From: Mastigocladopsis repens PCC 10914
Lineage (GTDB): Bacteria > Cyanobacteriota > Cyanobacteriia > Cyanobacteriales > Nostocaceae
Direction: 5' to 3'
NCBI RefSeq assembly: GCF_000315565.1
Contig: NZ_JH992901.1
Span: forward strand, 5,362,499 to 5,394,498
DNA: 32,000 nt
A program made the translations under genes and the position numbers. The notes beneath the pieces were generated by a model. The model was not told the DNA's origin, did no database searches, and worked only from the letters and a program-made list of their open reading frames with translations. The stretch's first letter is position 1. The number at the start of each line of letters is the position of its first letter. Shown one piece after another: positions 3,056 to 32,000 of the stretch.

Positions 3056-3112
3056 TATTTATTCGTCATTAGTTTTCTTCCCCCACTCCCCCACTCTTCT
3101 TCTACGGTTAGT

Positions 3113-9275: not shown

Positions 9276-9304
9276 AACAAACCAGGGTTTTTGAGATGAA
9301 ACCG

Positions 9305-13106: not shown

Positions 13107-13162
13107 AGTGAATAATTATTAGTCTTGCGTCTTCTTACTGATAACTGTTCACTGTACAAAAC

Positions 13163-15295: not shown

Positions 15296-15321
15296 TTGGT
15301 TTAGAAGATTGGAATCAAGTG

Positions 15322-15831
15322 CTATTTCAATGACAAAATCTCAAACTCAAACTCCAAATTGTGACTGTTGAGAAAATTGTGAGTGAAATGATCCACCACA
15401 TTTGTATTACTTAATTCCAAATTGTAAAAATCCACGGTTTCATGCTCAAAATAGGGTCCAGCGTGCCAAGTTCCTACCTCCAACTTGATAAAGCAATTTC
15501 CTGGAATGCGGAAAGCAGCAATGTCTTCTAGAGATGGTTCATCTATATTATTATTAGGAGGACAAACGGCAATCAACCAGTCCTTCCCTTCCAATGAACC
15601 CAAACATTGAGTGCATTGCACATGGCGAGTGATGGTGTGAAATTTCCGCCCTCTGCGGTGCAGCTGCATGATATAAAAGCGGGGAATACCTTTGTCAAGT
15701 ACGAGTTGAGCATCTTCTGCATCAAACGATGTGCCGTCTAACTGAGCAAAAATCACCTGTCCGTATCGACGGAAATTTTCCGGAGTTATCCATTCAGCCC
15801 GCAATTGTTGAACCGTCTTTGATATAGCCAT
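15322..15831 (-). CDS. Ureidoglycolate lyase (AllA) family-like cupin protein
   Basis: 169-aa ORF. ITPENFRRYGQVI ... HTITRHVQCTQCLGSLEGKDWLIAVCPP ... AFRIPGNCFIKLEVGTWHAGPYF resembles the AllA family pattern. Confidence 0.5.
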   Translation of the reverse strand: MAISKTVQQLRAEWITPENFRRYGQVIFAQLDGTSFDAEDAQLVLDKGIPRFYIMQLHRRGRKFHTITRHVQCTQCLGSLEGKDWLIAVCPPNNNIDEPSLEDIAAFRIPGNCFIKLEVGTWHAGPYFEHETVDFYNLELSNTNVVDHFTHNFLNSHNLEFEFEILSLK

Positions 15832-15915
15832 ATCGACTCCGCTTGCACCCTCATTATTTTACCTCTGTTCTATCTCCTGTTTAGAAGCGGTTACCCAGAG
15901 GTCTGCAAAAGGGAC

Positions 15916-16356
15916 TCACTGCAATTGTTCCAGTTCCTTGGGAATGAGAGACTTGGGAATGATGGAAGCTTGTTTTTCTGGATTTGAAGGTTTTGTATAC
16001 CACCAAGCCCAGGCAATTAAAACCGCCTGAAAAGGAAGTCTTACAGCTTGTAACCAGGGCGAATTTGGTATATGTTCAATCTGAATGTTATTAACGGCCA
16101 TGTTGATATTGGCTGGAAAAACAGCGATAAAAAGAGCAATTAGTCCCCAAGCAGTAGCTTGACTTAGAGGTGGGACTAATAACCCAATACCACCCAAAAT
16201 CTCATAAAAGCCACTCAGATAAACTAATTGTAGAGGGTAGGGCAGTTGCGGCGGCACAATTTTGACATATTGGTCTGGAGACGTAAAGTGCGTTACTCCG
16301 GCGACAATCATACATACAGCAAGGATGACACGAAAGATTTCCTTGATATTGTTCAT
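15916..16356 (-). CDS. DoxX-like (DoxX_2) small membrane protein
   Basis: 146-aa ORF with four hydrophobic helices. AGVTHFTSPDQYVKIVPPQLPYP ... LSGFYEILGGIGLL ... AVFPANINMA is typical of the family. Confidence 0.65.
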   Translation of the reverse strand: MNNIKEIFRVILAVCMIVAGVTHFTSPDQYVKIVPPQLPYPLQLVYLSGFYEILGGIGLLVPPLSQATAWGLIALFIAVFPANINMAVNNIQIEHIPNSPWLQAVRLPFQAVLIAWAWWYTKPSNPEKQASIIPKSLIPKELEQLQ

Positions 16357-16617
16357 CTGTTCCCTTTGACTGTTTAGTTGCGTCCACTCCTTCAGTTTGT
16401 TTGCCTGATGTTACTCTGTCTTCAGTCGAGAGTGGGAAGATGGGAGGATAAGGAGACTGCATTAAAAAAGCAACAGTTTGACCCCTCCCACGCCTTAACT
16501 TGTCACGCATCGGTTAAGCTTTAACCCACGTTCCGGTTAGTGTCACGAAGTTTTCGCAACTGGCAAAGGACAATTTTAGAACGCCGTTATAGCAGCGATT
16601 CCACTATCCTCAGCCGT

Positions 16618-17160
16618 TTATTGCCGTCTGCGCTTCAGCAATGAACCTCCACCTAAAGCACCAACGACCAAGAAAGTCAGTGTAGAAGAAGGTTCAGGAA
16701 CGGAAGTGGTTTTAACTTCGATAATACCCCTCAAAACATTCTGACCATTTAGGTCGTTCCAACCTCCGGCTGTATGTTGGTTCATCGCAGTATAGTCTTC
16801 ACTACCATCATAATTATTTGGCTCACTTAGAACCCAATTTTTAAATATGACAGGTTCCTCACTAATCCATTCAAATACACCTTCTTCATCTTGATCAGTA
16901 AACCCAATCCAGAAAGATTCAGTAGTGCCGAACGCACTCAGAAGAAAATTATGCTCATTAATATCGTTGACAGTAACCAGGCTTCCTCCAGCAGCTTGTG
17001 CTTGTGCTTGAGCATTAGTCCATGTAGTTGTGGTAGTTAAAGAATATGTACTGCCATTGAAGGTGACTGCTTGTGCTATATCGGCTGTTACCAGGGTAAT
17101 AAGCGCTACTCCTCCACCGACCACAGAACCGATAATATTTGCTAATTTCATAGAATTCAT
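16618..17160 (-). CDS. Secreted C-type lectin domain protein with a PEP-CTERM sorting signal
   Basis: The likely start is MNSMKLANII.. (17160), or the MKL start at 17151, followed by a signal peptide ending DIAQA. CTLD hallmarks are WTNAQAQAQAAGGSLVTV, FWIGFTDQDEEGVFEW, EPN and WND. The C-terminus VPEPSSTLTFLVVGALGGGSLLKRRRQ is a PEP-CTERM signal. Confidence 0.75.
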   Translation of the reverse strand: MNSMKLANIIGSVVGGGVALITLVTADIAQAVTFNGSTYSLTTTTTWTNAQAQAQAAGGSLVTVNDINEHNFLLSAFGTTESFWIGFTDQDEEGVFEWISEEPVIFKNWVLSEPNNYDGSEDYTAMNQHTAGGWNDLNGQNVLRGIIEVKTTSVPEPSSTLTFLVVGALGGGSLLKRRRQ

Positions 17161-17269
17161 TCTTTGTTTAAGGCTGATGCATTTCACACCAGTTATTGAT
17201 ATATCCAAACTACGCGGTAAGAAAATTGGAGTGGTGAAGTTCAAGTGAAATATACTTTATGTTCCGTAA

Positions 17270-17926
17270 GTTTAGCAGCAATTTTTGATGAGGTTATGGT
17301 AATGAGTGATCGGATTGCGGTGATGTACACAGGTGAGTTTGTAGGTATTTTGGATGCAAGGACAGCATCCAGCGTGTGCCGGGAATTGAACCAATTGTCA
17401 TTCGTGGTCTTGTGAATATTCCCCTAATCGGGCCTTTGCTATTCCATCAGGAGATTGTCGTATATTTACTGATGATTTTAGTTTTTCTAAGCACCTATAG
17501 TTTGTTTAAACCAGCCTTGGTCTTACCTTACGATCTGTAGGAGAATATCCCAAAGCTACTAACACGGCTGGGGTTCGGGTGTAACAGGTGCGTTACCTTG
17601 CTGTCGTCATCAGTGGTTGTCTAGCTGCGTTGGGAGGTGCTTATTTAACTTTGGAGCAGATAAAATACTTTGCCGAGGGGATGAGTGCGGGGAAAGGTTT
17701 TATTGCCATAGCAGCCTTAATTTTTGGTAAGTGGTATCCTTTAGAAACTGGGTTGGCTTGCTTGCTGTTTGGTGCTAATATCCCTTATCAATTTTTGATT
17801 ATGCGACCCTATTTAACAGCTATGCTTGCCCTTGTTGGTATTAGGTGGTCAGTCTACACCTCCAGCAGCTTTGGGAGTCCTCTACTTGCAAGACAACCCA
17901 CGAGACTAAAGCTCTATCGAATTTAA
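17270..17926 (+). pseudogene. Remnants of an ABC transporter operon: the C-terminal piece of an ATPase plus a fragmented permease
   Basis: IFDEVMVMSDRIAVMYTGEFVGILD is an ABC ATPase tail. The permease pieces lie in several frames: IPLIGPLLFHQEIVVYLLMILVF, then SLGLTLRSVGEYPKATNTAGVRV, an in-frame TAA at 17582..17584, then RYLAVVISGCLAALGGAYLTL...GKGFIAIAALIFGKW. The terminal GGQSTPPAALGVLY is in another frame. Confidence 0.75.
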
Positions 17927-18172
17927 CCAAAGCTAAATTTTTTCAACTGACACTTGACGAAATCCTTATCTAACATAATGATATTTGCTTGATGTTGCCA
18001 CTAGCTCATCGTGTTCTTCCCTAAATATCAGCGCAGAGACACTTTGCCTAGTGAGTCACAGACGAGTCAATCCATCTCAAGCCGCTAACAGCCGCTTAGA
18101 GGAAGCCTCGTACATCTTGCTAACATGATGCTTCCCTAAAAACAAGTTTTTTAGTGACGACGGTTTTGATGT

Positions 18173-18595
18173 ATGTGGTCTCTCTTTAAAGGCAACGAGT
18201 TATCTATGTATAGGCAGCCATTGGTTTTAGTTGTAGAACAAGATTTACACTATTTAGAACTTCTCAATTCTCACTTTAAGTTACTAAAATTATCGTGTAT
18301 TTGTGCCAAACAAGGAATCAAGGCTTTGATTTTGTCGCAAACCCACCAACCAGATTTAATTCTGCTAGATATTGCACTACCTGATTTAAATGGTTTACAA
18401 GTTATTCATTACTTGAAGCGAAACCCAGAGACAACGATGATTCCAATTATTGGAGTGACAGTTTTAACAAGCGAACAAGACGGGGATTCCATTCTTCTAG
18501 CAGGAGCTGATGATTGCATTACCAAACCATATAATTTTCCTCAATTAGAAGCAGCTATCCACTGCCATCTTAATCGGGTACACTCTTACAATTAG
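18173..18595 (+). CDS. Single-domain CheY-like response regulator receiver
   Basis: 140-aa ORF with LVLVVEQD, PDLILLDIALPDLNG, IPIIGVT and ITKPYNFPQLEAAI. The true start may be the internal Met at 18206. Confidence 0.8.
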   Translation: MWSLFKGNELSMYRQPLVLVVEQDLHYLELLNSHFKLLKLSCICAKQGIKALILSQTHQPDLILLDIALPDLNGLQVIHYLKRNPETTMIPIIGVTVLTSEQDGDSILLAGADDCITKPYNFPQLEAAIHCHLNRVHSYN

Positions 18596-18980
18596 CCTTA
18601 GGAATACTTTCACAATTGCGAACCTCTGGCAATGCTTCTAAAAAAATAATAATACCAGTGCGACCTGTTGTTAAACTTGTATTTATCAATAGGTCTACCA
18701 CTATTTTTTTTATGACTCCCTCAATCAAATCTTTGAGTTGTGGGGCAATTATTTTGTTTAAATCTAATCGCACTTGTTCAGCCAAACTCTTATAACCTTC
18801 TGTTATGAGAGTTTGCTCAGGACGGGTCACAGAATTTTCTATAGAGATTGCCAATTCTTTATCAAAAAATTGGCAAATGATTTTTCCTGTTTGATGCCCA
18901 AGTTGATTCCTATACAAGGAGCGGATACGATTTGTTATTTCTCTTTCTAGTTGTCCAATTGTAGGTTTAGACATTTTCAT
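18570..18980 (-). CDS. DUF2294-family protein
   Basis: The likely start is MKMSKPTIGQLEREITNRIRSLYRNQLGHQ.. at 18980; the upstream extension in the ORF track has no support. Its 3' end overlaps the convergent receiver gene by 26 nt. Confidence 0.55.
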   Translation of the reverse strand: MKMSKPTIGQLEREITNRIRSLYRNQLGHQTGKIICQFFDKELAISIENSVTRPEQTLITEGYKSLAEQVRLDLNKIIAPQLKDLIEGVIKKIVVDLLINTSLTTGRTGIIIFLEALPEVRNCESIPKANCKSVPD

Positions 18981-19444
18981 GGATTGCCTAAAAATATTAT
19001 CTTTGGAGTAGAATAGAAATGGTTGACACACAAAATAATAATTTATTAGCTAGTTACTTATCATAATAACTAATTTTACTCTTGCTATTATCTATAACAA
19101 GCATCAAAAGCTATATGTTTCATAAATAAATCTGATTCACATAATCATTTTTTTAGTTCCGAATCCAATAGGGTACTGATGTCATTAATCACATCAGTTA
19201 ATAAAGAATTAGTTCGCATACTATATTTTTTTAGAAGCTTTTAGCTATTGCCTGTGTTATACCAACAAAAGTTGTTTAATTAATTATTTGACAATGATAA
19301 TAAATTTCAAAATTGGCTAGGTGTTTATCTAGGGCGTATATTAAAATAACAAGAAAGTATGTATTTCCGCTAACTTTAAAATAACAGGTCTTGTTCAAAA
19401 GCAAGAATTTATCAACCAACAAAGGTCGCTTGTTAATTTTAAAA

Positions 19445-20091: not shown

Positions 20092-20817
20092 GTGAACAAT
20101 TGGGAAGCACAAGATGAGCCGGAGCATTTAAGGACGATCCGCCCATCTGAAGACCCCCCTAGCAAAGGTTTCTATGGTTCCCGTGTTTTTGCCTTCACTG
20201 ATGACTTAGATGTTACCAATCGCTTATTCCACAACCTTTTGGATGCCGAAGGTCGAGACAGTTGGGGTCGTCCCTTACCACGGCGACAGCCATTAGCGGC
20301 TTTGCGATCGCCGCTAATGGTAGAGAAAGGCTGATTGCTGGTCAATCCTGGCTGCTGTGCCAAGAAATCGGTCACGGTTTGCAACTTCCTTTGAATATTG
20401 GGCGCACCAGTTCCCAAGATACCGGAGTTACCCCAAATGCAGACGTGATTGTTGCTACTGCATCCCTGGAAGTGGGATTTAACGATCCAGAAGTTGGAGA
20501 TGTCATCCAGCACAAAGCACCGCGAGATATGGCCTCATTTCTGCAAAGGAAAGGACGGGCGGGACGACGCAGAACCATGCGACCTTGGACGGTGGTGGTG
20601 CTTTCTGATTATGGACGGGACAGAATCGCCTATCAAGGCTATGATATTTTGTTTAACCCAGTTTTAGAAAAGCGATCGCATCTCATGCTAACATCCGCTT
20701 CGACAATGGCCAGGAACTTGATACGACAATTCGCTTCACCCAGAGACAAGATGGTAGTCCAGCAGCTGTGGGATTTACCCAATCTGTTGACGGTCTAGTA
20801 TTTCGCTTTAAAAAAAT
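20092..20817 (+). pseudogene. Remnant of a large SF2 (DEAD/DEAH-type) helicase, with at least 2 frameshifts and its 3' end cut off by the CRISPR array
   Basis: Helicase motifs V-VI are present (VIVATASLEVGFNDPEVGDVIQHKAPRDMASFLQRKGRAGRR). Coding-like sequence lies in three frames: 20092.., 20262.., and 20654..20817 (HANIRFDNGQELDTTIRFTQRQDGSPAAVGFTQSVDGLVFRFKK). The last codon runs into repeat 1. Confidence 0.65.
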
Positions 20818-23278
20818 GTGCTCAACGCCTTACGGCATCACAGGTTTGGGCAGTGATACCTAATGCAAGTGCTTCGTTCTTAGCTTTGTGCTCAACGCCT
20901 TACGGCATCACAGGTTTGGGCAGTGTTTTGACCAAGACTGAATCCGTTGATAACAACTGTGCTCAACGCCTTACGGCATCACAGGTTTGGGCAGTAATCA
21001 AATTAGCTGAAGACGGGTACGTAGTTACGTGCTCAACGCCTTACGGCATCACAGGTTTGGGCAGTCGGCTATTTGTTTCATGGCTTTTTGAAAAGCAACC
21101 GTGCTCAACGCCTTACGGCATCACAGGTTTGGGCAGTCTCTGCTCAAAGGACAGCGATTGCTTACGTAGGCTTTGTGCTCAACGCCTTACGGCATCACAG
21201 GTTTGGGCAGCTCTGTCGTAAAGGTTACGTTGTTGCCAGAAAAATGTGCTCAACGCCTTACGGCATCACAGGTTTGGGCAGAGTTATTTCATCTCCGTGC
21301 TCATCCCAATGAGAAGGTGCTCAACGCCTTACGGCATCACAGGTTTGGGCAGCATAAGCTGTCAAAGCTTGCTGAGCATTAGCAGAGTGCTCAACGCCTT
21401 ACGGCATCACAGGTTTGGGCAGTTATAGTCAATCTTTTCGTTAAGCTGACTAAAAAAGTGCTCAACGCCTTACGGCATCACAGGTTTGGGCAGTCATTAG
21501 CGCCATTGAGGGCAAGCAGGTAATGGTGTGCTCAACGCCTTACGGCATCACAGGTTTGGGCAGGTGAGTTGCTCACCGATGATGCTGATTTTGGATTGGT
21601 GCTCAACGCCTTACGGCATCACAGGTTTGGGCAGTTTGCGACCGAGTTGAGCGCTGGAAGAAAGAAAGAAAGTGCTCAACGCCTTACGGCATCACAGGTT
21701 TGGGCAGCAATTAAATCGTCATAAAGATATTTAAAACCTTGTCGTGCTCAACGCCTTACGGCATCACAGGTTTGGGCAGCAATGCGAGCACCACTGGCGC
21801 GCCGTGCATCGCCAGGTGCTCAACGCCTTACGGCATCACAGGTTTGGGCAGAATTGAATTGGGTGGTGCTTACAAATTGCCCGGAGAGTGCTCAACGCCT
21901 TACGGCATCACAGGTTTGGGCAGAGGGTACAGGAGTTAATGCCTATCTCGTTCCAAATGTGCTCAACGCCTTACGGCATCACAGGTTTGGGCAGAACCTT
22001 AGCGAGTTATCCTTGCTTCCAACTTCTCGTGCTCAACGCCTTACGGCATCACAGGTTTGGGCAGAAGCCGTTAGTGGTTTGCAAAAGCAAAAGGTCTTGT
22101 GCTCAACGCCTTACGGCATCACAGGTTTGGGCAGCATCAATGCTGAGGGCATACCCATTGCTAGATGCCGTGCTCAACGCCTTACGGCATCACAGGTTTG
22201 GGCAGGATTACATTTGAGCGCTGGCAGTCATTCGTCTTTGTGTGCTCAACGCCTTACGGCATCACAGGTTTGGGCAGCTTAAAACAATTATCGCTTAAAG
22301 AGTATTGCTCGTGTGCTCAACGCCTTACGGCATCACAGGTTTGGGCAGAAGTCGGGGAAGTCGTAAGGTTTAAGCTGAAAATTGTGCTCAACGCCTTACG
22401 GCATCACAGGTTTGGGCAGTTGCACACCATGAGAGACTTTCCGTAAAAAGAATGTGCTCAACGCCTTACGGCATCACAGGTTTGGGCAGCTACCAGAAGG
22501 TGAAGCTAAAGGTATGGACGATTAGTGCTCAACGCCTTACGGCATCACAGGTTTGGGCAGATCTGGATCTCCGGGATCGAGTTTTGATGTGTATGTGCTC
22601 AACGCCTTACGGCATCACAGGTTTGGGCAGTTCCGAGCATCTGTCCCCTATTGTCCAAATTTCTAAGTGCTCAACGCCTTACGGCATCACAGGTTTGGGC
22701 AGAATGAACAAGCGTGAAAAGCTGTATCTGATTAACGTGTGCTCAACGCCTTACGGCATCACAGGTTTGGGCAGTTACCAACTTTCCCCCCAGCTTCTGT
22801 TAACACTTCTTGTGCTCAACGCCTTACGGCATCACAGGTTTGGGCAGTCGCAATCGGAACTAGTTGGCTTCGCTGTCCGCCGTTGTGCTCAACGCCTTAC
22901 GGCATCACAGGTTTGGGCAGGTGTACAAATTCGAGTAAGTTCATAATGCTCCTTTGTGCTCAACGCCTTACGGCATCACAGGTTTGGGCAGCGTCTGAAG
23001 CGACAGAGGACAATAGCGCCCAGTACTAGTGCTCAACGCCTTACGGCATCACAGGTTTGGGCAGTCCATTAAAGGATATACTGTTACCTTCTGTTAAGGT
23101 GCTCAACGCCTTACGGCATCACAGGTTTGGGCAGTAACTTCGTTAGTATAAGTAATAAGCAGATAAAAATGTGCTCAACGCCTTACGGCATCACAGGTTT
23201 GGGCAGACTGGTGCAAATTGCCAATCAGTACGGATGCACTATGTGCTCAACGCCTTACGGCATCACAGGTTTGGGCAG
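20818..23278 (-). CRISPR. CRISPR array of 35 identical 36-nt repeats and 34 spacers of 34-38 nt
   Basis: The plus-strand repeat is GTGCTCAACGCCTTACGGCATCACAGGTTTGGGCAG. I checked every copy by eye and all are identical. Repeat plus spacer lengths sum to 2461 nt, which equals the span. Minus-strand transcription is inferred from the cas operon direction, the AT-rich leader on the cas2 side, and the minus-strand reading CTGCCCAAACCTGTGATGCCGTAAGGCGTTGAGCAC. That reading has a GCC-GUAA-GGC hairpin followed by a ..UUGAGCAC tail, the expected position of a type I 8-nt handle. Confidence 0.97.
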
Positions 23279-23549
23279 TCCGCTTGCTGAAACCCATATC
23301 AGATAACCACCCGGCTCTGATATTACAAGCACCTAGCTTTAGAAAGCAACAAAGTAGCTAAATTTTTACCCAAACTTTACCCTAAGGATAGCAGACAATT
23401 TTAAAAACCCTTGAATAGGCTAACTTTCAGGTCATTTAGAGAAAATGCAAGCACTGATCGTTAGTCTAAAAACCTCGAATAGCAAGCCCAATGGGAGTTT
23501 TGTTCTTGTGTTTTTCTGTGTTAAGACTTCACACTCACAGATCCTTGCA
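23279..23549 (-). promoter_or_regulatory. CRISPR leader between cas2 and the first repeat
   Basis: 271-nt AT-rich non-coding stretch. The candidate sigma70-type promoter on the minus strand is TTGCTT (23349..23344), an 18-nt spacer, then TAATAT (23325..23320), about 40 nt upstream of the first repeat. The promoter assignment is weak. Confidence 0.55.
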
Positions 23550-23843
23550 TCAGACAATGCGGTATGCCTCCTCTGGAAATGACCAAGCACCCGGACGGTT
23601 ATAAGCTGGTATACCAGCAACACACTGGTGCGATAGACGAATCAAAAGTAGAGTATCTTCTGGGGCTAATATCTTTTCTAGCTCCCAGCGTAATTTCTCT
23701 CGCGATCGCTGACTTAGCCAAGAGCGAAAAATAGAGTATTGTATTCGTTCGCCATAGCCTTGGAGTAGGTTGTAAGCTTTGCGCCAACGCTTTGAATCGC
23801 GAATATCATAACAAATGAGGTAGCAATTTTTATGTTCTGCCAT
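23550..23843 (-). CDS. cas2: Cas2
   Basis: 97-aa ORF. YLICYDIRDSKRWRKAYNLLQGYGERIQYSIFRSWL is the classic Cas2 N-terminus. It starts 9 nt after the cas4/cas1 stop. Confidence 0.92.
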   Translation of the reverse strand: MAEHKNCYLICYDIRDSKRWRKAYNLLQGYGERIQYSIFRSWLSQRSREKLRWELEKILAPEDTLLLIRLSHQCVAGIPAYNRPGAWSFPEEAYRIV

Positions 23844-23852: not shown

Positions 23853-25520
23853 TCATCGCAGCACCAGATGACCAAACAAACCACCCTCACCAGACCATTC
23901 TTTTTCTAACAATCGCACCTCCAACTCAAACAAACGGCGATAGGTAAGGGAATAACTAGTGACTGGATGTTTCCAACTCTCTTGTTTGCGGCGCTCGTAC
24001 AGTTCAACAAACTTGCGCTTACCAGCTTCGCTCAACCAAACCTGCTCTCCACGAACTTCAAAATCTGCCTTGATATCCCATTGGTTGCGATTAACTGAAG
24101 CCATCACTGTCATGTCTACCAAAGGCACTCGAAATATTTCAATCAGATCCAATGCTAGTGGTGCAGCTTGTGAACGCGGCTGATGGTAAAAACCTAATGC
24201 AGGTTCCAGTCCTACTGTCAAGATGGCATTCATTACATCTTTAAGTAGTAAAGCATATCCAAAACTCAACAGCGTATTAAACCTATCTTTGGGTGGATTG
24301 CGGTTTCTCCCAGCAAAATGCATTCCTTCTGGCACTTCTTTAGAAATCAAACAAGGCAGGGCACTAAAATAAAGAGCAGCAAGGTTCCCCTCCAGTCCTA
24401 ATAGGGATTCCAAAGATTTTGCTTGAGGAACTTGTTTGAGGACAACTTTCATTTGGGCGATTGCCGCCTTCAAACTCTCTGGTGTTTCAGCTTTGCCCCT
24501 AGTCCCTCGCATTAAGAACTTCCTCTGTCCCTGAGCGCGACAAACTACCAGTTTACGGGCTAACTCCAGACAGGTATCAGGGTTGCTAAGAGCAGTATAC
24601 TGACGAATACGGCGTTGGATGCTACCCTGGCGGGTATCAAAACTACCGAGGTAACGTCCACCACCAGAAATAAAATGCACCCCAATTCCTTGATCAGCAC
24701 AAAAGTGCAGTGCTTGGGTGGAGATTTGGGAGAAACTGTGCAACACCAGTTGTCCAACCTGACGAGCAGGAATGGTTTCTACAGGTTGATTGCGACGGGC
24801 AATTTTGATTTGTTCTCCTGTTCTGCCGACAGATGTCCCTGGTTCTAAAACATGAATCACTTGCCGTTCGTCGTCTTCAGGAAACAAGCGAATTGGTTGC
24901 CATTCCCGGTCATGGGCAAGTCTCGCTTCTTCAGGCAAGCAGACGGGAGCCAAGGAACAACGGGCGCACAATCGCTCATTATCAATCACTGGTGGTCGGT
25001 GAGTAGATTCTCTGAGAGTGCGTGCTTGCTGAATTGCTTCGCGAACCGCTGAGCGTCCTGCATCATCTAATGGTACATGAACTAAGACATTATCAGCGTG
25101 GTAGCGAATGCGACCTTCTTTGACTGTGATTCCCAAGGCTGATTCTAAGAGATAGGCATAAGCAAGGATTTGTAGCTTGTCGCTCTGCCAAGCAGATGGT
25201 TGCTTGTTCTCGTCTCGGTGAGCGCGACCGCGTTTGTGTTCGTAGGGAATTGTTTGTCCGTCACGGGTGCGGAGGGCATCAAGCCGACCGCGTAATCCTA
25301 GTTCTTCGCTTTCGAGAAAAAGTTCTTCCCACTCTTCGTCTTCTTGTTTTTCGAGTTCGGTGTGCAGTCTGCGTCCGGCAAAGACTGCGGCATCTTGGGT
25401 GTAAAGTTCTTCAACTTCTTCGAGGTAGAAGAGGCGGGGGCAGTAAGCGAGGGCGTGGAGTGCAGATACACGAATGGTTTCTGGTTTTGTAGAAAATTCA
25501 AGATATTTGAGAGTTTGCAT
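23853..25520 (-). CDS. cas4/cas1: Cas4-Cas1 fusion protein
   Basis: 555-aa ORF. The N-terminal roughly 200 aa is a RecB-like Cas4 with a four-Cys cluster (YCPRLFYL ... CARCSLAPVC). The remainder is Cas1 (VIHVLEPGTSVGRTGEQIKI, ISGGGRYLG, ALLLKDV, GFYHQPR, ALDLIEIFR). Confidence 0.92.
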   Translation of the reverse strand: MQTLKYLEFSTKPETIRVSALHALAYCPRLFYLEEVEELYTQDAAVFAGRRLHTELEKQEDEEWEELFLESEELGLRGRLDALRTRDGQTIPYEHKRGRAHRDENKQPSAWQSDKLQILAYAYLLESALGITVKEGRIRYHADNVLVHVPLDDAGRSAVREAIQQARTLRESTHRPPVIDNERLCARCSLAPVCLPEEARLAHDREWQPIRLFPEDDERQVIHVLEPGTSVGRTGEQIKIARRNQPVETIPARQVGQLVLHSFSQISTQALHFCADQGIGVHFISGGGRYLGSFDTRQGSIQRRIRQYTALSNPDTCLELARKLVVCRAQGQRKFLMRGTRGKAETPESLKAAIAQMKVVLKQVPQAKSLESLLGLEGNLAALYFSALPCLISKEVPEGMHFAGRNRNPPKDRFNTLLSFGYALLLKDVMNAILTVGLEPALGFYHQPRSQAAPLALDLIEIFRVPLVDMTVMASVNRNQWDIKADFEVRGEQVWLSEAGKRKFVELYERRKQESWKHPVTSYSLTYRRLFELEVRLLEKEWSGEGGLFGHLVLR

Positions 25521-25539
25521 ATATGTCTGTAAGGTAATT

Positions 25540-25577
25540 GTGTTTTAGCGCCTTACGACATCAGAGGAAATGGAATT
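25540..25577 (-). repeat. Solitary degenerate CRISPR repeat (psi-R) in the Uma2 / cas4-cas1 intergenic spacer
   Basis: Plus-strand gtgttttagcgccttacgacatcagaggaaatggaat aligned to the repeat gtgctcaa-cgccttacggcatcacaggtttgggcag gives 25 of 36 identities with one gap, and 19 of 21 in the hairpin core. The orientation matches the array repeats. Confidence 0.7.
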
Positions 25578-26153
25578 TTAGGGATTTAACCCAGCTTGTT
25601 GAAAGATTGCGTTAGGGGTAATTTCCAATCCTGGTAGCAAATCATCAGTAATGACTTGATCAAATCGATAAGTAATCGGCAAAGATGACGTAAATACAGT
25701 TACAGTTCTAGCTTTTGTATCAACCACCCAAACACAAGGAACACCAGCTTTGAGATAATCAGTCGCTTTTTCGGCAATTTCGCCAAAAGTTTGCCCAGGT
25801 GAGATAATTTCAATTACTAATTCCGGTGCAACAGGGCAAGCTTCATCTAATAGCCAGTCAGCAGGAAGACGGTGATATGAAATATAGGTCAGATCGGGTA
25901 CAGGCATCCAATCTTGTTGATTTCGTGTTAGTTTGATTGCCCATTCAATAACAACTCGACCTTTTGCTTGTGCCCATGCAGACAATAGTATAAATAAAGC
26001 ACCAGTAGTCGAGCCATGAAAAAACTTTGGTGACATTTCATCGTCTTTATATTTTGGGACAGCTTCACCATTAACAAACTCGTATGTAATATCTCCTTCC
26101 GGGAGTGCAAGAAATTCTTCTAGCGTTAGGCGTTGATTAGAAGACTGAACCAT
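25578..26153 (-). CDS. Uma2 family (DUF820) PD-(D/E)xK endonuclease embedded in the cas operon
   Basis: The likely start is the ATG at 26153 (MVQSSNQRLTLEEFLALPEGDITYEFVNGEAVPK); the ORF-track start at 26198 is a TTG. The core reads VPDLTYISY ... APELVIEIISPGQT ... YLKAGVPCVWVVD, matching the cyanobacterial Uma2 pattern. Confidence 0.8.
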   Translation of the reverse strand: MVQSSNQRLTLEEFLALPEGDITYEFVNGEAVPKYKDDEMSPKFFHGSTTGALFILLSAWAQAKGRVVIEWAIKLTRNQQDWMPVPDLTYISYHRLPADWLLDEACPVAPELVIEIISPGQTFGEIAEKATDYLKAGVPCVWVVDTKARTVTVFTSSLPITYRFDQVITDDLLPGLEITPNAIFQQAGLNP

Positions 26154-26201
26154 AGGTTTTATATGGTAAAAGAGGCTTACTTTTAGTTTAAGTGACAACT
26201 G

Positions 26202-26909
26202 CTAAGTTGCTTTAATGACCGTCCAGGCAGACTCAGGAGGATGAGATAACTCAGAAGGTTCAAGTATTATGTATCTCTGCCAATGAGTACCCTTTGAACC
26301 AACATGATCCACCCAATAGGGTAAAGTTAACAACCCGTTTTCATCTTGTACCAGCCATTGCAATGATTGACCTTGGTAGTTTTTGGGCAACAAGGTAACA
26401 TCATTAACCAAATCTCGGCTTTCTCCTAAACAAAGACCGCCAAAACGATTGATGGAAGCAGGATTGGCAAATGCCATCTGTAAGCGTTCTGCTAGCGTTG
26501 GCTGTGAATTATCCTCCCCAGCATCAACCCAAGTAATAAATCTAACATCAGTCAACAGTTCCTGATAATCTGGTCTGGCATTACTAGGATCATGGATATC
26601 TTTCTTCTTAAAACGGCGAAATGTGCGGATAACAGTAGATTTTTGTGGTTGGGAAACCAGAGCGATCGCCCTTTGGGCGGCTCCCTCCGGGAGCATCGCC
26701 TCCGGCGGGCGCGGGAGCGCCATCGCCAAACGAGTTCCACAGTGCTTGTACCTGTCCATCTCACCAACCATTGAAAGTAGCATTCCATAAACTGTGGATG
26801 GTGGAGGGACTGGGTAAGTTTCAGCGTACTCTCTTGCACGAGATTGACGAAAACTAGCTATAGGAACTTCTACGAACATAGCCAATATTTTCTCAGTGGT
26901 TGTCGTCAT
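26202..26909 (-). CDS. cas5: Cas5 (DevS-like)
   Basis: 235-aa ORF. VEVPIASFRQSRAREYAETYPVPPPSTVYGMLLSMVGE is the Cas5 N-terminal signature. An ATGA overlap links it to the cas7 stop. Confidence 0.85.
   Translation of the reverse strand: MTTTTEKILAMFVEVPIASFRQSRAREYAETYPVPPPSTVYGMLLSMVGEMDRYKHCGTRLAMALPRPPEAMLPEGAAQRAIALVSQPQKSTVIRTFRRFKKKDIHDPSNARPDYQELLTDVRFITWVDAGEDNSQPTLAERLQMAFANPASINRFGGLCLGESRDLVNDVTLLPKNYQGQSLQWLVQDENGLLTLPYWVDHVGSKGTHWQRYIILEPSELSHPPESAWTVIKAT
26661..26727. repeat. GC-rich (about three-quarters G+C by my count) in-frame insert within cas5, small dispersed repeat-like
   Basis: The sequence agcgatcgccctttgggcggctccctccgggagcatcgcctccggcgggcgcgggagcgccatcgcc encodes LAMALPRPPEAMLPEGAAQRAIAL. 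It contains the hairpins ctccc-tcc-gggag and cgcc-tccg-gcgg, plus an internal direct repeat read on the minus strand (gcgatg(gcg)ctcccg twice). Confidence 0.55.
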
Positions 26910-27826
26910 CGAATTAACTCCAATTGAGGTAGCTGTAAATCCCTATCGATGACTTGTTTCATGCTTTGAACAGCTAATTTAATTCCTGGGAAAATATTCA
27001 CCCCCAATTCTTCTAATTCTTCCGCTTCCTGAGATTCTGTAATGGCACCAGCTATCCATAACTCCTGCGGTTCAATATCCTGATTTTTGACCTTTCTTAC
27101 CAATTCCCCAATTGATATTTCTTCTTCATTCTCTTCAAAGCAGTAAAGAATACGGGGAGCGAAGTCATGAGTCCATCGTAAAACTAAACTTTCGGGAGAA
27201 AAATCGTAGAGAAAGCGAGAATGATTACCTGCTACTTCGCCCAGAGAACTCAAACCATCTAGAACTGCAATTATGCGAGATTTATCTTTCAGACGTTCTG
27301 GAGTTAATGCAAATCCATATTGATAACGAGTTGCATGAACCTCAGTTCCATAAAGTGAAGTCCGTCCTTTTTTACCACTAGCAGCATTGAAGGTTAAATC
27401 ACCACTAAAAGGTGTTGTAGAAACAGCACGAGTTACTTCCAAAACTCCTCGTTTAGCTGTTGTTGTACCTTTAGGTGCTTTTTTTCCTTTTTGTTTGGGT
27501 TCATCTGAAGCTTCAACTTTTGCACCCTCTGCACGCATAAAACCTAATACATCATCATCAATAAAATTGGTGTCATCAAAATTTTCATTTTGCCAAATAT
27601 TATCATTGGCATCATCATCCCAACGACGATTAACTTGATAACCGTTGCCAGCAGTCTGCCAGTAGTAGCGTAATGCCCAACGAATTGCCTCAGATGAAAC
27701 TGTTGTATGTACTTCTCCCTTCCAAAGAATTTTTTGTAAGGTTGTAATATTACCTTCGTTTTCTCCACGATTATTGGCAGCAGTACCATACCCAGTCAAC
27801 ACATTTCCAAATAAATGAAACGACAT
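26906..27826 (-). CDS. cas7: Cas7 (Cst2/DevR-like backbone subunit)
   Basis: MSFHLFGNVLTGYGTAANNRGENEGNITTLQKI is a typical Cas7 N-terminus. I prefer the ATG at 27826, which is preceded by AGGAG, over the ORF-track start at 27856. Confidence 0.85.
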   Translation of the reverse strand: MSFHLFGNVLTGYGTAANNRGENEGNITTLQKILWKGEVHTTVSSEAIRWALRYYWQTAGNGYQVNRRWDDDANDNIWQNENFDDTNFIDDDVLGFMRAEGAKVEASDEPKQKGKKAPKGTTTAKRGVLEVTRAVSTTPFSGDLTFNAASGKKGRTSLYGTEVHATRYQYGFALTPERLKDKSRIIAVLDGLSSLGEVAGNHSRFLYDFSPESLVLRWTHDFAPRILYCFEENEEEISIGELVRKVKNQDIEPQELWIAGAITESQEAEELEELGVNIFPGIKLAVQSMKQVIDRDLQLPQLELIR

Positions 27827-27883
27827 TTTTGAAATCTCCTCAAGAATTACAAGCATTTACAAAAATCTAATTTCTTCAAACTT

Positions 27884-29383
27884 TTAAATGCCAATATCAA
27901 TTACATCATCTTCATTAGAAACACCTTTACCTTTATAACTAGCTAACGCCAGCAAAGCTAAATCTCTCGATTTTTTCCAGTTCTTCTCAGCCATCACAAA
28001 CTCCATTAACTCTTCCCAATGTTCCTGTAAAGTGGGTAATTTCCCTGCTCGTGACCAAAAATCAGTAATAAATTCTCGAAATGTATCCGAATTTTTACAT
28101 CTACTTAATCCGGTTCTGATTTTTACAGTGACACGTTCAAAATTAGGAATCTCACCAGGTTTAGTTTTATCAGCAACTTGACCATAAGTATAATTGATTG
28201 CCTCATGGCAAGCTTGAACAAATAGTTTTTCGCGTTCATCTGATTTAACTTTCTGAATCACTTGATATAGCCCTCCCCTTTCGTAAGCTAACTTTTTGAA
28301 TAATTCGTTACTGTTTACTTTTTCGGAAATACCAGAATACCAAGGTTGATTTCTAGCTAAGTTTTCAGCAATTAATTCCTTAGCAAAGCTAGTTACCACA
28401 AAATTACTATCCTTACCTTCAATTGATTTATCTTTCAACCAATCTTTACAAACCTGATAGTTGTGACAAATCTCGTCATTGGCTTTTACCACATACATAT
28501 CTGTCCGAGTTTTTTGTTGAGTTGCCCATGCAACAGTTCCCAAAGTGAAAACTTGGCAACGCGATACACCAAAGTCTCTAGTAATATCTATTGTTGTTTC
28601 TAAAGTCAAAAATTTTAGCCCTGCATCACCTAAACCTGATGCATGAAAATCTTTGTAAGTGGCATATCTTAAGTTTTGATTTTGACGATATTGGGCATAC
28701 TTTTCTAAATCTGTAATTTCCGGAACTACCAATGCATACTGAGCACGTTTATCTCGCAACTTCGAGCGCAGAATGTAGTAATAACAAGCGACGGGAGCAA
28801 ATAACAGAACAAATGCATCTTCTGGAAGTTCTTCAAAAGAAGTATCAGAACTGAAAGCAACATGACGTACCACTGCACCAGGATTTAACCACCCAGCAAC
28901 ACTAATTGGTTTTGTCAGTAATTGCCCGTTTTTATCACAAAGGTTACTGGCAAAATCTTGATAAGCATAGCTTTGTAAGGTTTTATATGTAACCTGAATC
29001 TCTTTTTCCCCCTCACCTAATGATAGAGATTCGGTTTTGGTTCCACTCGATTTATGGGTGCTGGTATGCTGTAAAAAAGTGCCAAGAATTCCCTGGTGTA
29101 CAATTACCTGAGCGTCCTTACGCATAGTTTGTGAATCTAAACCGCGAAGGGCAATTAGTCCATCATTTATTTGGAATGATTCTTTTAATAGCCATTCCAA
29201 AACTGTTTTATCGCTTCTTTCCCAATTTAAGATGACTTTTCGGTTGGAAAGCTGCCAATTTAACCCCTCTGGACGAGCCACTTTTTCTATTTCTAACTGC
29301 TTTAAAGTCATCCATAACCCAGCTAAACCAGCACAATGCAATAAAGTAAAGCTAGGATTACCTAAATCAAACTCTAATTTCAC
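27884..29383 (-). CDS. cas8: Cas8-like large subunit (Cas8a1/Csx13-like of MYXAN-type loci)
   Basis: 499-aa ORF in the large-subunit position between cas3 and cas7. Its GTG start overlaps the cas3 stop (GTGA). The C-terminal third is helical. The family assignment rests on position and on a loose recollection of Csx13. Confidence 0.6.
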   Translation of the reverse strand: MKLEFDLGNPSFTLLHCAGLAGLWMTLKQLEIEKVARPEGLNWQLSNRKVILNWERSDKTVLEWLLKESFQINDGLIALRGLDSQTMRKDAQVIVHQGILGTFLQHTSTHKSSGTKTESLSLGEGEKEIQVTYKTLQSYAYQDFASNLCDKNGQLLTKPISVAGWLNPGAVVRHVAFSSDTSFEELPEDAFVLLFAPVACYYYILRSKLRDKRAQYALVVPEITDLEKYAQYRQNQNLRYATYKDFHASGLGDAGLKFLTLETTIDITRDFGVSRCQVFTLGTVAWATQQKTRTDMYVVKANDEICHNYQVCKDWLKDKSIEGKDSNFVVTSFAKELIAENLARNQPWYSGISEKVNSNELFKKLAYERGGLYQVIQKVKSDEREKLFVQACHEAINYTYGQVADKTKPGEIPNFERVTVKIRTGLSRCKNSDTFREFITDFWSRAGKLPTLQEHWEELMEFVMAEKNWKKSRDLALLALASYKGKGVSNEDDVIDIGI

Positions 29384-31800
29384 TGTTCTGCCCCTACCTC
29401 TTCGCTGTAGCGAATTCTGCCTTTTAGAGTGATGGGATAGAATCCCCTACGTTCCCATTGATAGTAGTCTTTCTCAATTCGGATAGGTACTGACCAAGCT
29501 TGTGCTTCCTGTTTGAACAATTTCATCCGGGATTCATTTATGCCTCGTTTGAGTAATTCTTGTCTGCGCTGTTCGGCAATATCCCATATCGCTGTTTCAT
29601 CCTCACCCAATAACACGGTAATTGTGTATCCACCTTCACGTAGAAAATCTGGGCGATTACACCAGTTATCTTCCAACCAACTTGATTTAACTTGCTCGAC
29701 TTTCTCTGAGTGAAGACGGGCAGCGACTTGTGCTAAATCTCGTTGAGAAATACCTGTTTTACCAGAAAATTCTTGAATTAATTGTTTTCCTGTGGCAAGT
29801 TCTGCCAAATCATAGGGTCGTCCATCATTATTCCAAGGATAAATAATTGCCTGTTTTGCCCCTTCTTCTGGTTTCGTCATTCTGCGGTTCAGTCTTCCTA
29901 AGCGTTGAATTAAAGATGCTGCGGGAGCCATTGCAGATATCAAGAAATCAGCGCTTAAATCCAACGACATTTCACAAACTTGCGTAGTGATAGCCAAGAC
30001 TGGTTCATTTTTTCCAAAGGCTTCAATTACAGCTTTATGCTTTTTAAGTCTATCTTTGTAACGGTAACGACTGTGATAAATTAACGGTTCGAGGCTTAAC
30101 TGTGGTAATTGTTCAGCAAGCTTAATTTTGGCTGTGCGATAAATTTTGATACAGCTTGGTACAGAATTAGTTACCCATAACACTTTCTGCTTATTTCTGA
30201 GAGCTTCTATTACAGGTTGCCAGATTTCCTTTTCATCAAAGTCAGTTACTTCAGGGACATATTTAATGTCGTAACGCTTAAGTTCCTCTAGTTCCTTTGG
30301 TCCTTCGATGGGTTCGTCTAATTCTTCGCCTTGTTCTGCAAGTACTTGACGAATAGCTTGTAACTGTTCGGGAGTAAAACTGGCACTCATCAAGAGAATG
30401 GGCGCACCGCGAAACGCTTTGATAAATTTCAACAATGCACCAAAAAGACGTGTATCGTATGCGTGGACTTCATCAAATACAAAAGCTGATTGAGCGATCG
30501 CCGCCCAGGAGTAAAGCGGCTTGCGATTGTTTTGAATTAAGCCCAATACAGAATCAACTGTACAGACAATCAGTTTCTTCCGCCATGCCTGAAAAGCCAT
30601 TAATCGAGCATCGATACCCTCAGAATCATCAGATTCCCCAGAAAATAGTAGTTCTCGATCCAAATCTGCACGAGAATGCATTAAAGCTGCTTCGATTTCT
30701 GTACCATCTGCATAGTCGATATATCCCTGTGAAGCTGTACCTGTAGTTGGATAAGAAAAAAATAGTTTACGTCCTACTGCCCATTTTTCTCCCCAAGCGT
30801 ATGCACCAATCGTTTTACCTGTTCCACAACCTGCTTTGACAAGCGTTACTCGACGACGCGATTTGGCAATTAACTCTTGAAAGGGACGTAACTTTTGACC
30901 TTTTAGGCGTTGATTGACTAATTTCTGAATATCTTCTTTTGAAAGTTGCAATGATAAGACTTGTTCAATCCATTCCTTGAAGTCTTCTTCAGCTAGAGGT
31001 AACGCAGAACCAGCCAAATCTGCTGCAATTACCGTTGCTTTCACAGCAGCAATAAATTTTTGCTGCTCCCAATCTAGTTGCGATTCAAACTGAATAAATT
31101 CGTTACGTAGATTTATTAAAGCCTTTTGTAATTGTGACTTTGACCAAATTTCTGGAGGTAAGTCTGGTAAGCTTTCAGGTAATCCTAAAGCTTTATGACC
31201 CATTTTCAAAACAGCTTGAAAGTCTGAATGATGGGTATAAAACTTTAATTCATCTCCAATACCTGAAGGAATTTCAGCTATAAATTCTGCGGCTTGATTA
31301 TTTTGATTTATTCCTATTTTTAAATGATGTCCCATTGCTGCCCAAACAGCAATCATCAAGTTTGCATTCTGGCATTGTTCCAACCATTCCCTAAAGGTAG
31401 GTACTTGCAACGCCAAAATACCGCTAATAATTTCATGACGCAGCATTTGTTTGTCTGAATGCTCCTTGGAAAGTGCCAAAATTCGCTTTCTATAATCTCG
31501 GAGCTTTGGATCTGGTGATTTAGGATCAAGAGTTTTCAGGTAAACCATCTCCTGAAAATGTTGATTTGCTTTACCCCAATCATGTAAGTACGCGCCTAAT
31601 CTAACTGTCGTTGCAAAGTAATCTAAATCAATATGTTTTATCCCTAATTGCTGGAGAATGGGCTTACCCAAGTTACCTACCAAAACATCAGCCGCTTGCA
31701 CCACCAAGCTGATATGTCCTGTATACTTTGCAGCGCCTCGTGCTATATCGTTTTTGTTCTCCTCTACTGATAACGATTTAGCCAACAACACCTTAAACAT
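29380..31800 (-). CDS. cas3: Cas3 (N-terminal HD nuclease fused to an SF2 helicase)
   Basis: HD motifs are YLHDWGKANQHF and MGHHLK. Helicase motif I is AGCGTGKT, motif II is FDEVHAYD and motif VI is QRLGRLNRR. I prefer the ATG at 31800 (MFKVLLAKS), preceded by GGAGG. The 19-codon upstream extension in the ORF track overlaps cas6. Confidence 0.9.
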   Translation of the reverse strand: MFKVLLAKSLSVEENKNDIARGAAKYTGHISLVVQAADVLVGNLGKPILQQLGIKHIDLDYFATTVRLGAYLHDWGKANQHFQEMVYLKTLDPKSPDPKLRDYRKRILALSKEHSDKQMLRHEIISGILALQVPTFREWLEQCQNANLMIAVWAAMGHHLKIGINQNNQAAEFIAEIPSGIGDELKFYTHHSDFQAVLKMGHKALGLPESLPDLPPEIWSKSQLQKALINLRNEFIQFESQLDWEQQKFIAAVKATVIAADLAGSALPLAEEDFKEWIEQVLSLQLSKEDIQKLVNQRLKGQKLRPFQELIAKSRRRVTLVKAGCGTGKTIGAYAWGEKWAVGRKLFFSYPTTGTASQGYIDYADGTEIEAALMHSRADLDRELLFSGESDDSEGIDARLMAFQAWRKKLIVCTVDSVLGLIQNNRKPLYSWAAIAQSAFVFDEVHAYDTRLFGALLKFIKAFRGAPILLMSASFTPEQLQAIRQVLAEQGEELDEPIEGPKELEELKRYDIKYVPEVTDFDEKEIWQPVIEALRNKQKVLWVTNSVPSCIKIYRTAKIKLAEQLPQLSLEPLIYHSRYRYKDRLKKHKAVIEAFGKNEPVLAITTQVCEMSLDLSADFLISAMAPAASLIQRLGRLNRRMTKPEEGAKQAIIYPWNNDGRPYDLAELATGKQLIQEFSGKTGISQRDLAQVAARLHSEKVEQVKSSWLEDNWCNRPDFLREGGYTITVLLGEDETAIWDIAEQRRQELLKRGINESRMKLFKQEAQAWSVPIRIEKDYYQWERRGFYPITLKGRIRYSEEVGAEQ

Positions 31801-32000
31801 TTCTACCTCCCTTACAAGGCAAGAAATATCCACAACCAAGGTGTCTTTTGCCACCAATCCCTAACTGCTGTAACTTTAAAGAATCATCATCACTTAAGCC
31901 TGAAACTTCTGTTGTAAAACCAACAATGGTATATCGTTTGACTTTAAGCGTTTTACGACTAAAAGCACCTTTTTTATCTACCGGAATAGAAAGTTTCCCT
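31793..32000 (-). CDS. cas6: Cas6 C-terminus (partial; the gene continues beyond the right edge)
   Basis: Not in the ORF track. The minus-strand frame is open from 31999 to the TAA at 31795..31793. It reads GKLSIPVDKKGAFSRKTLKVKRYTIVGFTTEVSGLSDDDSLKLQQLGIGGKRHLGCGYFLPCKGGRNV. GIGGKRHLGCG fits the Cas6 C-terminal glycine-rich loop. The stop overlaps the cas3 ATG by 8 nt. Confidence 0.6.
   Translation of the reverse strand, partial: GKLSIPVDKKGAFSRKTLKVKRYTIVGFTTEVSGLSDDDSLKLQQLGIGGKRHLGCGYFLPCKGGRNV

Follow-up and report, generated by a model that had tools for sequence, protein, structure and literature searches.

A relic CRISPR repeat and a conserved anti-repeat precede the cas4/cas1 start codon in a cyanobacterial type I-MYXAN-like cas operon

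Organization of the cas operon and its solitary repeat

The window (i.e., the whole stretch of 32,000 nucleotides from Mastigocladopsis repens PCC 10914 that was analysed) harbors on its minus strand a type I-MYXAN-like CRISPR-Cas operon, with effector genes in the order cas6-cas3-cas8a1/csx13-cas7-cas5. The features of the operon, in the order of transcription and numbered by window position, are the following.

31796-31999, minus strand: cas6/cmx6, first gene of the operon; the C-terminal 68 codons are present and the rest is cut by the window end; translation ends ...GIGGKRHLGCGYFLPCKGGRNV and stop
29380-31857, minus strand: cas3
27884-29383, minus strand: cas8a1/csx13
26906-27856, minus strand: cas7
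26202-26909, minus strand: cas5 of the Cmx5/DevS type (TIGR02586, 2.4e-42), last gene of the effector module
25578-26198, minus strand: Uma2-family gene (PF05685), between cas5 and the relic repeat; stop codon TAA at 25580-25578
25540-25577, minus strand: CRISPR repeat relic of 38 nt, reading AATTCCATTTCCTCTGATGTCGTAAGGCGCTAAAACAC from 25577 to 25540; 25/36 identical to the array repeat, with one gap
23853-25520, minus strand: cas4/cas1 fusion of 555 aa (TIGR03983 cas1_MYXAN, 1.9e-177, and the Cas4 domain PF01930); ATG at 25520-25518
23550-23843, minus strand: cas2 (TIGR01573, PF09827)
23279-23549, minus strand: leader of about 270 nt, preceding the main array
20818-23278, minus strand: main CRISPR array, 35 repeats of 36 nt; minus-strand repeat CTGCCCAAACCTGTGATGCCGTAAGGCGTTGAGCAC

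A full cas6/cmx6 homologue (TIGR02807 cas6_cmx6, 5e-66) was found at positions 993-1682 of L010, the closest full locus. Adjacent cas genes overlap or are separated by no more than 27 nt, with the exception of the 57-nt gap between the Uma2-family gene and cas4/cas1. The relic repeat is located in this gap, the only sizeable untranslated one in the operon.

The first-pass annotation described the element as a degenerate CRISPR repeat that starts at the first base past the Uma2 stop codon, ends 19 nt before the cas4/cas1 ATG and is oriented like the array repeats, and both the coordinates and the orientation agree with our analysis. The identity of 25/36 with one gap was reproduced by global alignment. 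The core identity of "19 of 21", however, was a miscount: the string in question has 19 letters with 2 mismatches, and the actual value is 17/19 without gaps, or 18/21 if the match is extended. The comparison with shuffled sequences that had been proposed as a check was performed with 300 first-order Markov shuffles of the non-array sequence of the window, in which 17/19 was never reached (0/300) and 18/21 was reached in one of the 300; thus, the match is beyond chance. With a threshold of at least 15/19 identities to any repeat window, the relic was the sole site outside the array on both strands. The reality of the element is settled, as about 46 related loci carry it at the corresponding position, and its derivation from a CRISPR repeat is confirmed. 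The repeat-spacer-repeat regularity of an array is absent from the relic, and no second repeat copy was found in or near the cas operon within the window.

Selective conservation of the repeat core in related loci

Related loci were collected by a Cas4/Cas1 protein scan with one genome per species, which yielded 67 cyanobacterial loci with 73-91% identity. The search for the element in orthologous loci, also proposed in the first-pass annotation, was successful: it is present in 46 of the 65 loci with the start region available, with the motif CCTCTGATGTCGTAAGGCG located 45-65 nt upstream of the cas4/cas1 start. The other 19 loci lack the element and use other leaders; a stem-loop just before the AUG was also seen in unrelated 5' UTRs of loci without the element. 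A metagenome scan provided 48 further loci, which were mostly redundant; about seven distinct sequences were new, and they brought no qualitative change.

The conserved part of the relic and the identities between loci, given for array repeats and for solitary copies, are as follows.

25549-25567, minus strand: conserved repeat core CCTCTGATGTCGTAAGGCG, from which the crRNA 3' hairpin is formed; repeat positions 10-28
First 9 nt of the repeat: identity between loci 0.57 in array repeats, 0.36 in solitary copies
19-nt core: identity between loci 0.87 in array repeats, 0.85 in solitary copies
8-nt handle: identity between loci 0.90 in array repeats, 0.48 in solitary copies

The core is ungapped in all 43 distinct homologues, with eight invariant and five near-invariant positions, and the bases adjoining it are at the neutral identity level. 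The crRNA 5' handle is required for the loading of Cascade. As handle identity falls to 0.48 in solitary copies, compared with 0.90 in array repeats, the solitary copy has selectively lost this part; an intact 8-nt 3' end (UUGAGCAC) is absent, and the window has CUAAAACA(C). By this comparison of sequences, the relic appears to be no passive fossil, with a core conserved like that of working repeats and neutral neighbouring bases.

A long stem between the repeat core and an anti-repeat at the start codon

The main feature of this locus, overlooked by the first-pass annotation, is a conserved anti-repeat bordering on the cas4/cas1 start codon and pairing with the repeat core. The elements of this structure, together with an alternative local fold, are listed below.

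25551-25561, minus strand: 5' arm of the long stem, AUGUCGUAAGG, within the repeat core; in the minimum free energy (MFE) fold; 91% of cells paired across 44 distinct sequences
25535-25550, minus strand: loop of 16 nt, CGCUAAAACACAAUUA; variable save for the 5' CG (25549-25550), which is part of the core
25523-25534, minus strand: 3' arm (anti-repeat), CCUUAC(A)GACAU, ending 2 nt before the AUG; pairing probability 0.89-1.0
25549-25560, minus strand: alternative local hairpin UGUC-GUAA-GGCG; -2.2 kcal/mol; mutually exclusive with the long stem

Most homologues have another conserved block, CCTTACAGACAT, that is complementary to the repeat core and ends 2-8 nt before the start codon. Pairwise identity is 0.85 in the 5' arm and 0.72 in the 3' arm, compared with 0.46 in the loop and 0.41 at four-fold degenerate sites of cas4/cas1. 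The decayed equivalent of the 8-nt crRNA handle lies in the loop, at about 25541-25548. The 3' arm extends from -14 to -3 relative to the cas4/cas1 start, a predicted overlap with the translation initiation region, and the stem is followed by AUAUG.

The MFE fold of the window sequence contains the long stem (-14.9 kcal/mol for 101 nt, with -10.9, or about -11, kcal/mol for the stem context), and the long stem is the MFE fold in most homologues as well. The z-score of the fold, calculated from the window sequence only, is a modest -1.87, with 7/200 shuffles folding equally well. An exceptionally strong block of the start site was considered and rejected: the predicted opening energy of the cas4/cas1 start region, 8.0 kcal/mol, is ordinary (the window median is 8.1 and the value for cas2 is 13.2 kcal/mol). 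As modelled, the long stem is conserved, yet it is not unusually strong.

Signs of selection on the pairing

When 43 distinct sequences were aligned with MAFFT, blind to structure, standard pairs were formed in 86.5% of the cells, compared with 33-55% in slid controls. The covariation score on this alignment was 0.126 versus 0.089 +/- 0.010, as high in 0/500 shuffles, and the double-change count also exceeded all 500 shuffles; on model-based alignments, 91.3-91.6% of the cells pair (29-55% when slid) and two-sided changes were counted in 12-14 cells versus 3.8-5.0 expected (0/500 shuffles), although the shuffle control overstates the significance of all these values because the sequences are related. 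Compensatory changes occur at pairs 10:60 (UA 19, CG 8, UG 4), 12:57 and 13:56, and double changes are limited to three of the 11 pairs. In variants with C for U at position 10, pairing is rescued either by A60G (GGCAU) or by a shifted bulge (CGGACAU). The pairing is therefore maintained by compensatory changes, and the G-U pairs present in the stem and the variable loop length among relatives (11-32 nt) argue for a sense-strand RNA rather than a DNA operator.

RNAalifold, run on both alignments, returned only the 3-bp local hairpin as consensus, and the long stem was absent. The support for the long stem thus comes from single-sequence folds, from the explicit pair counts above and from a natural control, in which a 12-nt arm was searched for a duplex in the next 50 nt. 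The median duplex energy was -12.75 kcal/mol in the elements and -6.5 kcal/mol in 1,482 ordinary repeat+spacer units, and duplexes of -12 kcal/mol or lower were found in 29/46 elements versus 26/1,482 ordinary units.

A covariance model of the element (R1) gave 42 matches of at least 40 bits, of which 41 (40-70 bits) are directly on the 5' side of cas4/cas1. With this model, about 1,200 ordinary array units stay at or below 39 bits, except for one at position 16310 of L033; this high-scoring match away from cas4/cas1 was rejected as an ordinary array repeat whose spacer is complementary by chance. The element is accordingly located exclusively in front of cas4/cas1.

A local Cas6-type hairpin as a second preserved fold

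The alternative local hairpin is weak (-2.2 kcal/mol, compared with -8.5 kcal/mol for an array repeat), and its pairs 9:18, 10:17 and 11:16 are retained in 52/52, 51/52 and 52/52 sequences, respectively. C18 is near-invariant and G19 invariant, although both are unpaired in the long stem; both close the local hairpin. Since the pairs of the local hairpin and these two bases are kept beside the long stem, two mutually exclusive folds have been preserved.

Judged from its bases, the relic has what a Cas6 (Cmx6) substrate would be expected to have, that is, a stem-loop of the repeat type with conservation that reaches the G preceding the expected cut. The first-pass annotation had proposed a Cas6 cleavage site, and this reading is compatible with our data in that the conserved part corresponds to the hairpin of the repeat that Cas6 would bind. 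The solitary copy does not follow the loop and stem changes in the repeats of its own array (L001, L002, L010, L019 and L022), an observation that is neutral to mildly negative for recognition by Cas6.

Origin of the relic and its relation to the Uma2 gene

Full CRISPR arrays are located between cas5 and cas4/cas1 in four related loci (L035, L038, L039 and L055), and all of them end in the degenerate copy. Mini-arrays occupy the same interval in five others (L022, L037, L009, L053 and L021), again with the degenerate copy as the last unit. Because the arrays and mini-arrays of these relatives end in this way at the same position, the sequence comparison indicates that an inter-module array formerly separated the effector from the adaptation genes and that the relic was its terminal repeat. 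The related loci show adaptation modules inside or beside arrays, swapped at repeat boundaries.

The Uma2-family gene was found in about 20 related loci and is missing from others that keep the element. In eight loci (L001, L002, L016, L017, L019, L022, L031 and L034), the element occurs without Uma2 and cas5 is directly upstream, with about 15-19 nt between its end and the GAUG of the motif. The element also survives the deletion or fragmentation of Uma2 in L003, L008, L013 and L064, and it is retained with effector genes only 25-45% identical to those of the window in L003, L008, L012, L013, L015, L024 and L064. Thus, the element belongs to the adaptation module, which it accompanies across several swaps of the effector module, and was not made by Uma2; the Uma2 gene is an optional neighbour outside the element. 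The junction before cas4/cas1 is a point of exchange for effector modules, Uma2 and arrays.

The first-pass annotation had considered a fossil of an older array or of a recombination joint, perhaps the scar of the Uma2 insertion. Only part of this proposal holds: the origin from an array is borne out by the arrays of the relatives, but the scar is rejected, as the element exists without Uma2 and outlasts Uma2 decay, and a merely passive fossil is at odds with a core nearly as conserved as that of array repeats (0.85 versus 0.87).

Possible function in the expression of the adaptation genes

Excess Cas1, Cas2 and Cas4 carries the risk of self-derived spacers. To our knowledge, how type I systems set the levels of the adaptation proteins separately from those of the effector proteins is poorly understood. 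With moderate confidence, we consider the relic repeat and its anti-repeat to be a cis-regulatory 5'-UTR structure for the adaptation genes, which would have been kept from the inter-module array and is possibly opened by Cas6. On the cas mRNA, the repeat core AUGUCGUAAGG is predicted to pair with the anti-repeat CCUUAC-A-GACAU, 2 nt before the AUG, and the long stem would then mask two sites, the relic hairpin that Cas6 would recognise and the ribosome landing site of cas4/cas1 from -14 to -3. As the core pairs with an anti-repeat that ends at the AUG, one stem would hide both sites, and a single conserved structure unites the Cas6-type hairpin with the start site. From this arrangement, we infer that the stem acts on the translation or the stability of cas4/cas1. 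Most economically, the stem would govern the start of translation, or the mRNA 5' end, of the adaptation genes separately from the effectors; since the only sizeable gap of the operon (57 nt) precedes cas4/cas1, the structure likely sets the amount of Cas4/Cas1 (and Cas2) independently of the effectors.

How such a stem might be opened is more speculative, including any part of Cas6 as the switch. Cas6/Cmx6 would be the likeliest trigger: the local repeat hairpin would be transcribed first and could be captured by free Cas6, which would perhaps cut after the conserved G at 25549, and capture or cleavage would block formation of the long stem, exposing the start site. The relic and anti-repeat may thereby constitute a natural Cas6-gated RNA switch, a proposal that is tentative and somewhat doubtful, in which the stem hides the Cas6 site and the start region as long as no free Cas6 (i.e., Cas6 not tied up on pre-crRNA or Cascade) is available, while capture would allow the acquisition proteins to be made. 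If true, this switch would couple spacer uptake to the state of crRNA processing, and it would represent a post-transcriptional counterpart of the CreR-type sensing of crRNA load as well as a natural precedent for synthetic Csy4 switches.

Several other explanations have to be weighed against a cis-regulatory structure. A plain Cas6 processing site, at which a cut separates the effector from the adaptation transcripts and the complementary downstream arm is incidental, agrees with the array-like orientation, with the conservation of the Cas6-bound part of the repeat and of the G before the expected cut, and with the cas6/cmx6 gene in the operon. It leaves unexplained, however, why a 3' arm that sequesters the very hairpin needed is conserved and co-varies, and the local hairpin is weak relative to the long stem (-2.2 versus -10.9 kcal/mol); we regard it as rather unlikely. 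A determinant of mRNA stability or processing independent of Cas6, in which the stem-loop shields the 5' end of the cas4/cas1-cas2 mRNA or the A-rich loop is an RNase E site, could accommodate the A/U-rich and unstructured loops of all homologues and the stem-loops before the AUG in the unrelated 5' UTRs of loci without the element. A weak promoter-like match (25575-25602, minus strand; -35 TCAACA, -10 TAAAAT; 9/12 consensus) would even let transcription begin at the 5' border of the core, but such sites are not above shuffle expectation, the match being no better than chance and lacking conservation in loci with an array or cas5 upstream, and the invariance of the repeat-specific unpaired positions (CCU, G6, C18 and G19) would be unaccounted for, which makes this explanation unlikely. 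Distinctly unlikely is a passive fossil, in which the last repeat of an inter-module array since lost is decaying, or a recombination joint has been left behind, and the apparent hairpin reflects the palindromic nature of the repeat. Relatives do carry arrays at the site, degeneracy is usual in terminal repeats, cas loci often contain standalone repeats (PMC10120712), 19/65 loci are without the element and the energy of the start-region stem is ordinary; nevertheless, decay would not leave the core (0.85) and the 3' arm (0.72) conserved against 0.41-0.48 in the loop, the handle and the four-fold sites, nor pairing maintained by compensatory changes, a duplex that is rare in ordinary units (26/1,482 versus 29/46), or an element that outlasts Uma2 decay and effector-module swaps.

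The role of the site as the exchange junction for effector modules, Uma2 and arrays, together with the recombinogenic nature of repeats, might point to an element acting at the DNA level, either an inverted repeat to which a regulator binds as a dimer or a site of recombination where the modules meet. The arm spacing that varies from 11 to 32 nt, the G-U pairs valid only on the sense RNA strand and the bulge in one arm make this very unlikely. The first-pass annotation had also raised a repeat-derived regulator of the CreA/CreR kind, and this reading fared worst. As a crRNA-like guide (of the CreA/CreR/scaRNA type), the relic and its flank would load Cascade and repress a promoter through partial complementarity; elements of this kind are common across type I loci (PMC10120712; bioRxiv 10.1101/2023.03.10.532045), and two-repeat mini-arrays exist at the site in a few relatives (L022, L037 and L009). 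The window, however, has a single copy with no second repeat-like match, and the 8-nt handle is at neutral identity (0.48 versus 0.90). Targets of the pseudo-spacers on either flank were sought in the window, which lacks the operon promoter, and in L010, where the search extended to the sequence ahead of cas6, and only background matches were found (best 20-22/36, with a shuffle mean of 22). With no second repeat and no guide target found, the relic is not CreA/CreR-like, and a guide function is highly improbable. An intrinsic terminator between the modules, which would have a G+C-rich stem with a U-run after it, was also tried and rejected, with 0 terminator-like sites in 25300-26300. A search with the Rfam covariance models assigned no family, giving just two chance-level lncRNA matches (E values of 0.23 and 3.9).

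Relation to known repeat-derived elements

The cis-regulatory structure that we favour can be compared with several known systems. With degenerate terminal (leader-distal) array repeats, the relic shares the repeat family and the orientation, and the copy of the relatives is the last unit of an array between cas5 and cas4/cas1. Unlike them, the relic of the window has no attached array and has a core selected at the level of working repeats, and ordinary terminal repeats, including the one at the distal end of the window's own array, are without the complementary partner that the relic has.

Standalone repeat-like elements, mini-arrays and single repeat units have been documented in cas loci (Shmakov et al. 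2023, PMC10120712), and the degenerated mini-CRISPRs CreR and CreA repress cas promoters via Cascade (bioRxiv 10.1101/2023.03.10.532045). Like these elements, the relic is derived from a repeat, resides within a cas locus, is conserved among related loci and plausibly regulates cas expression. The known elements are trans-acting guides loaded onto Cascade or Cas12a, with two repeats, a pseudo-spacer and a promoter target, whereas the relic comprises one repeat with a decayed handle, no target found and a cis anti-repeat at the start codon. It therefore likely shares with the known standalone repeats both its ancestry and a regulatory role, with the cis anti-repeat at the start codon as an addition. 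A term search of both reports (PMC10120712 and bioRxiv 10.1101/2023.03.10.532045) showed that neither mentions cyanobacteria or a regulatory repeat ahead of cas4/cas1, and a literature search of incomplete coverage found no description of a repeat/anti-repeat hairpin before cas4/cas1, which is no proof of novelty. If regulatory, the element would add a cis-acting use of CRISPR repeats as RNA structure to the trans-acting CreA, CreR, scaRNA and tracr-L, and it would offer a directly testable handle on the control of adaptation in filamentous cyanobacteria.

A repeat-complementary sequence in the cas locus that pairs with repeat RNA is also found in the anti-repeat:repeat duplex of the tracrRNA in types II and V. 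In contrast to the tracrRNA, the pairing of the relic is in cis, within an mRNA leader, and spans 11 bp only, and its system is type I, with no known involvement of tracrRNA, RNase III or Cas9. By analogy, the nearest functional equivalent may be the synthetic Cas6/Csy4 hairpin switch placed in a 5' UTR, as in a Cas6f-based translational control system (PMC13478208). These switches similarly set a Cas6-recognised hairpin by the ribosome binding site, and translation is altered by Cas6 binding or cleavage; they are synthetic, however, and a natural equivalent, like the responsiveness of the relic to Cas6, is hypothetical. Finally, the phage-encoded Racrs are solitary repeat units that serve as decoys sequestering Cas proteins (PMC10651486); they too are single repeat copies that retain the Cas6-binding hairpin, whereas the relic belongs to the chromosome, where it sits within the cas operon and is linked to a start codon.

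Repeats flanking the adaptation genes

In four of the related cyanobacterial loci recovered with the Cas4/Cas1 protein, one genome per species (L035, L038, L039 and L055), arrays lie on both sides of the adaptation genes, one before cas4/cas1 and one after cas2. The two arrays share the same orientation, and cas4/cas1-cas2 is thus bracketed by direct CRISPR repeats. In addition, one adaptation module was found combined with at least three classes of effector module (60-96%, about 40% and about 25-30% identity). Taken together, the direct-repeat flanking and this mixing suggest that CRISPR repeats served as recombination points for module exchange. A further locus, L048, carries an array upstream of cas4/cas1 without the hairpin of the relic repeat, the degenerate solitary repeat found at this place in the window.

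Repeat-like copies are also present 5' of cas4/cas1 in two other loci. In L031 (7905-7990), two of them lie nearly back to back, with a spacing of 41 nt that leaves no true spacer between them, while L016 (7948-8003) has kept a single copy, which is similar to the first of the two in L031 and has its own complementary arm, GCAUC. Judging from these sequences, the double copy and its single counterpart suggest that the relic repeat was replaced or duplicated more than once.

The junction between cas5 and the relic repeat is occupied in the window by one gene:

25578-26198, minus strand, Uma2-family gene (PF05685), between cas5 and the relic repeat

This gene begins 3 nt from the cas5 stop codon and ends 0 nt from the relic repeat, and a Uma2-family gene occupies exactly the same place in about 20 related loci (L005, L006, L010, L012, L015, L021, L024, L030, L032, L033, L050, L053, L054 and L059-L063), with two copies in L012 and L050. 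Only its final 20-30 nt remain in L008, L013 and L064, and L003 holds fragments of it. The Uma2-family gene may be an accessory gene, or the junction may be a hotspot for cargo insertion.

Leaders without the relic repeat

In relic-less loci (L007, L049, L041, L066, L023, L040, L043, L046, L056 and L057), the leaders directly 5' of cas4/cas1 are unrelated, yet a stem-loop is again found directly 5' of the AUG, which may represent a convergent solution. In L040, the stem-loop (GGGCA...UGCCC) ends 3 nt before the AUG. A TTTTGCCGGG/TTTTGCAGGG motif is common to several of these leaders.

Other features of the window

In region 20810-20853, the main array closes on its leader-distal side with a repeat that is non-degenerate and lacks an anti-repeat, the arm that pairs with the relic core, whereas the cas4/cas1-proximal copy differs in both respects. 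On the minus strand, this last repeat is directly followed by AUUUUUUU, where the pre-crRNA may end in the manner of a terminator. Adjoining this distal end are:

20092-20798, plus strand, split ORFs with only a helicase C-terminal domain (PF00271)

These ORFs appear to derive from a helicase gene that has been truncated or has become a pseudogene.

In region 31793-31857, the cas6/cmx6 frame is open as far as the stop codon at 31793-31795, so that the mechanically listed cas3 start (TTG at 31857) would put about 60 nt of cas3 within cas6; this start probably lies too far upstream.

Positions 1-19000 hold ordinary chromosomal content, among it a PyrF-PyrE-like fusion, a molybdopterin oxidoreductase with cytochrome b561, an AAA_35-GGDEF protein, a GH65 phosphorylase-HAD fusion, sucrose synthase, a P-type ATPase and a C-type lectin domain protein. 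This content and the related loci are consistent with a filamentous cyanobacterium.
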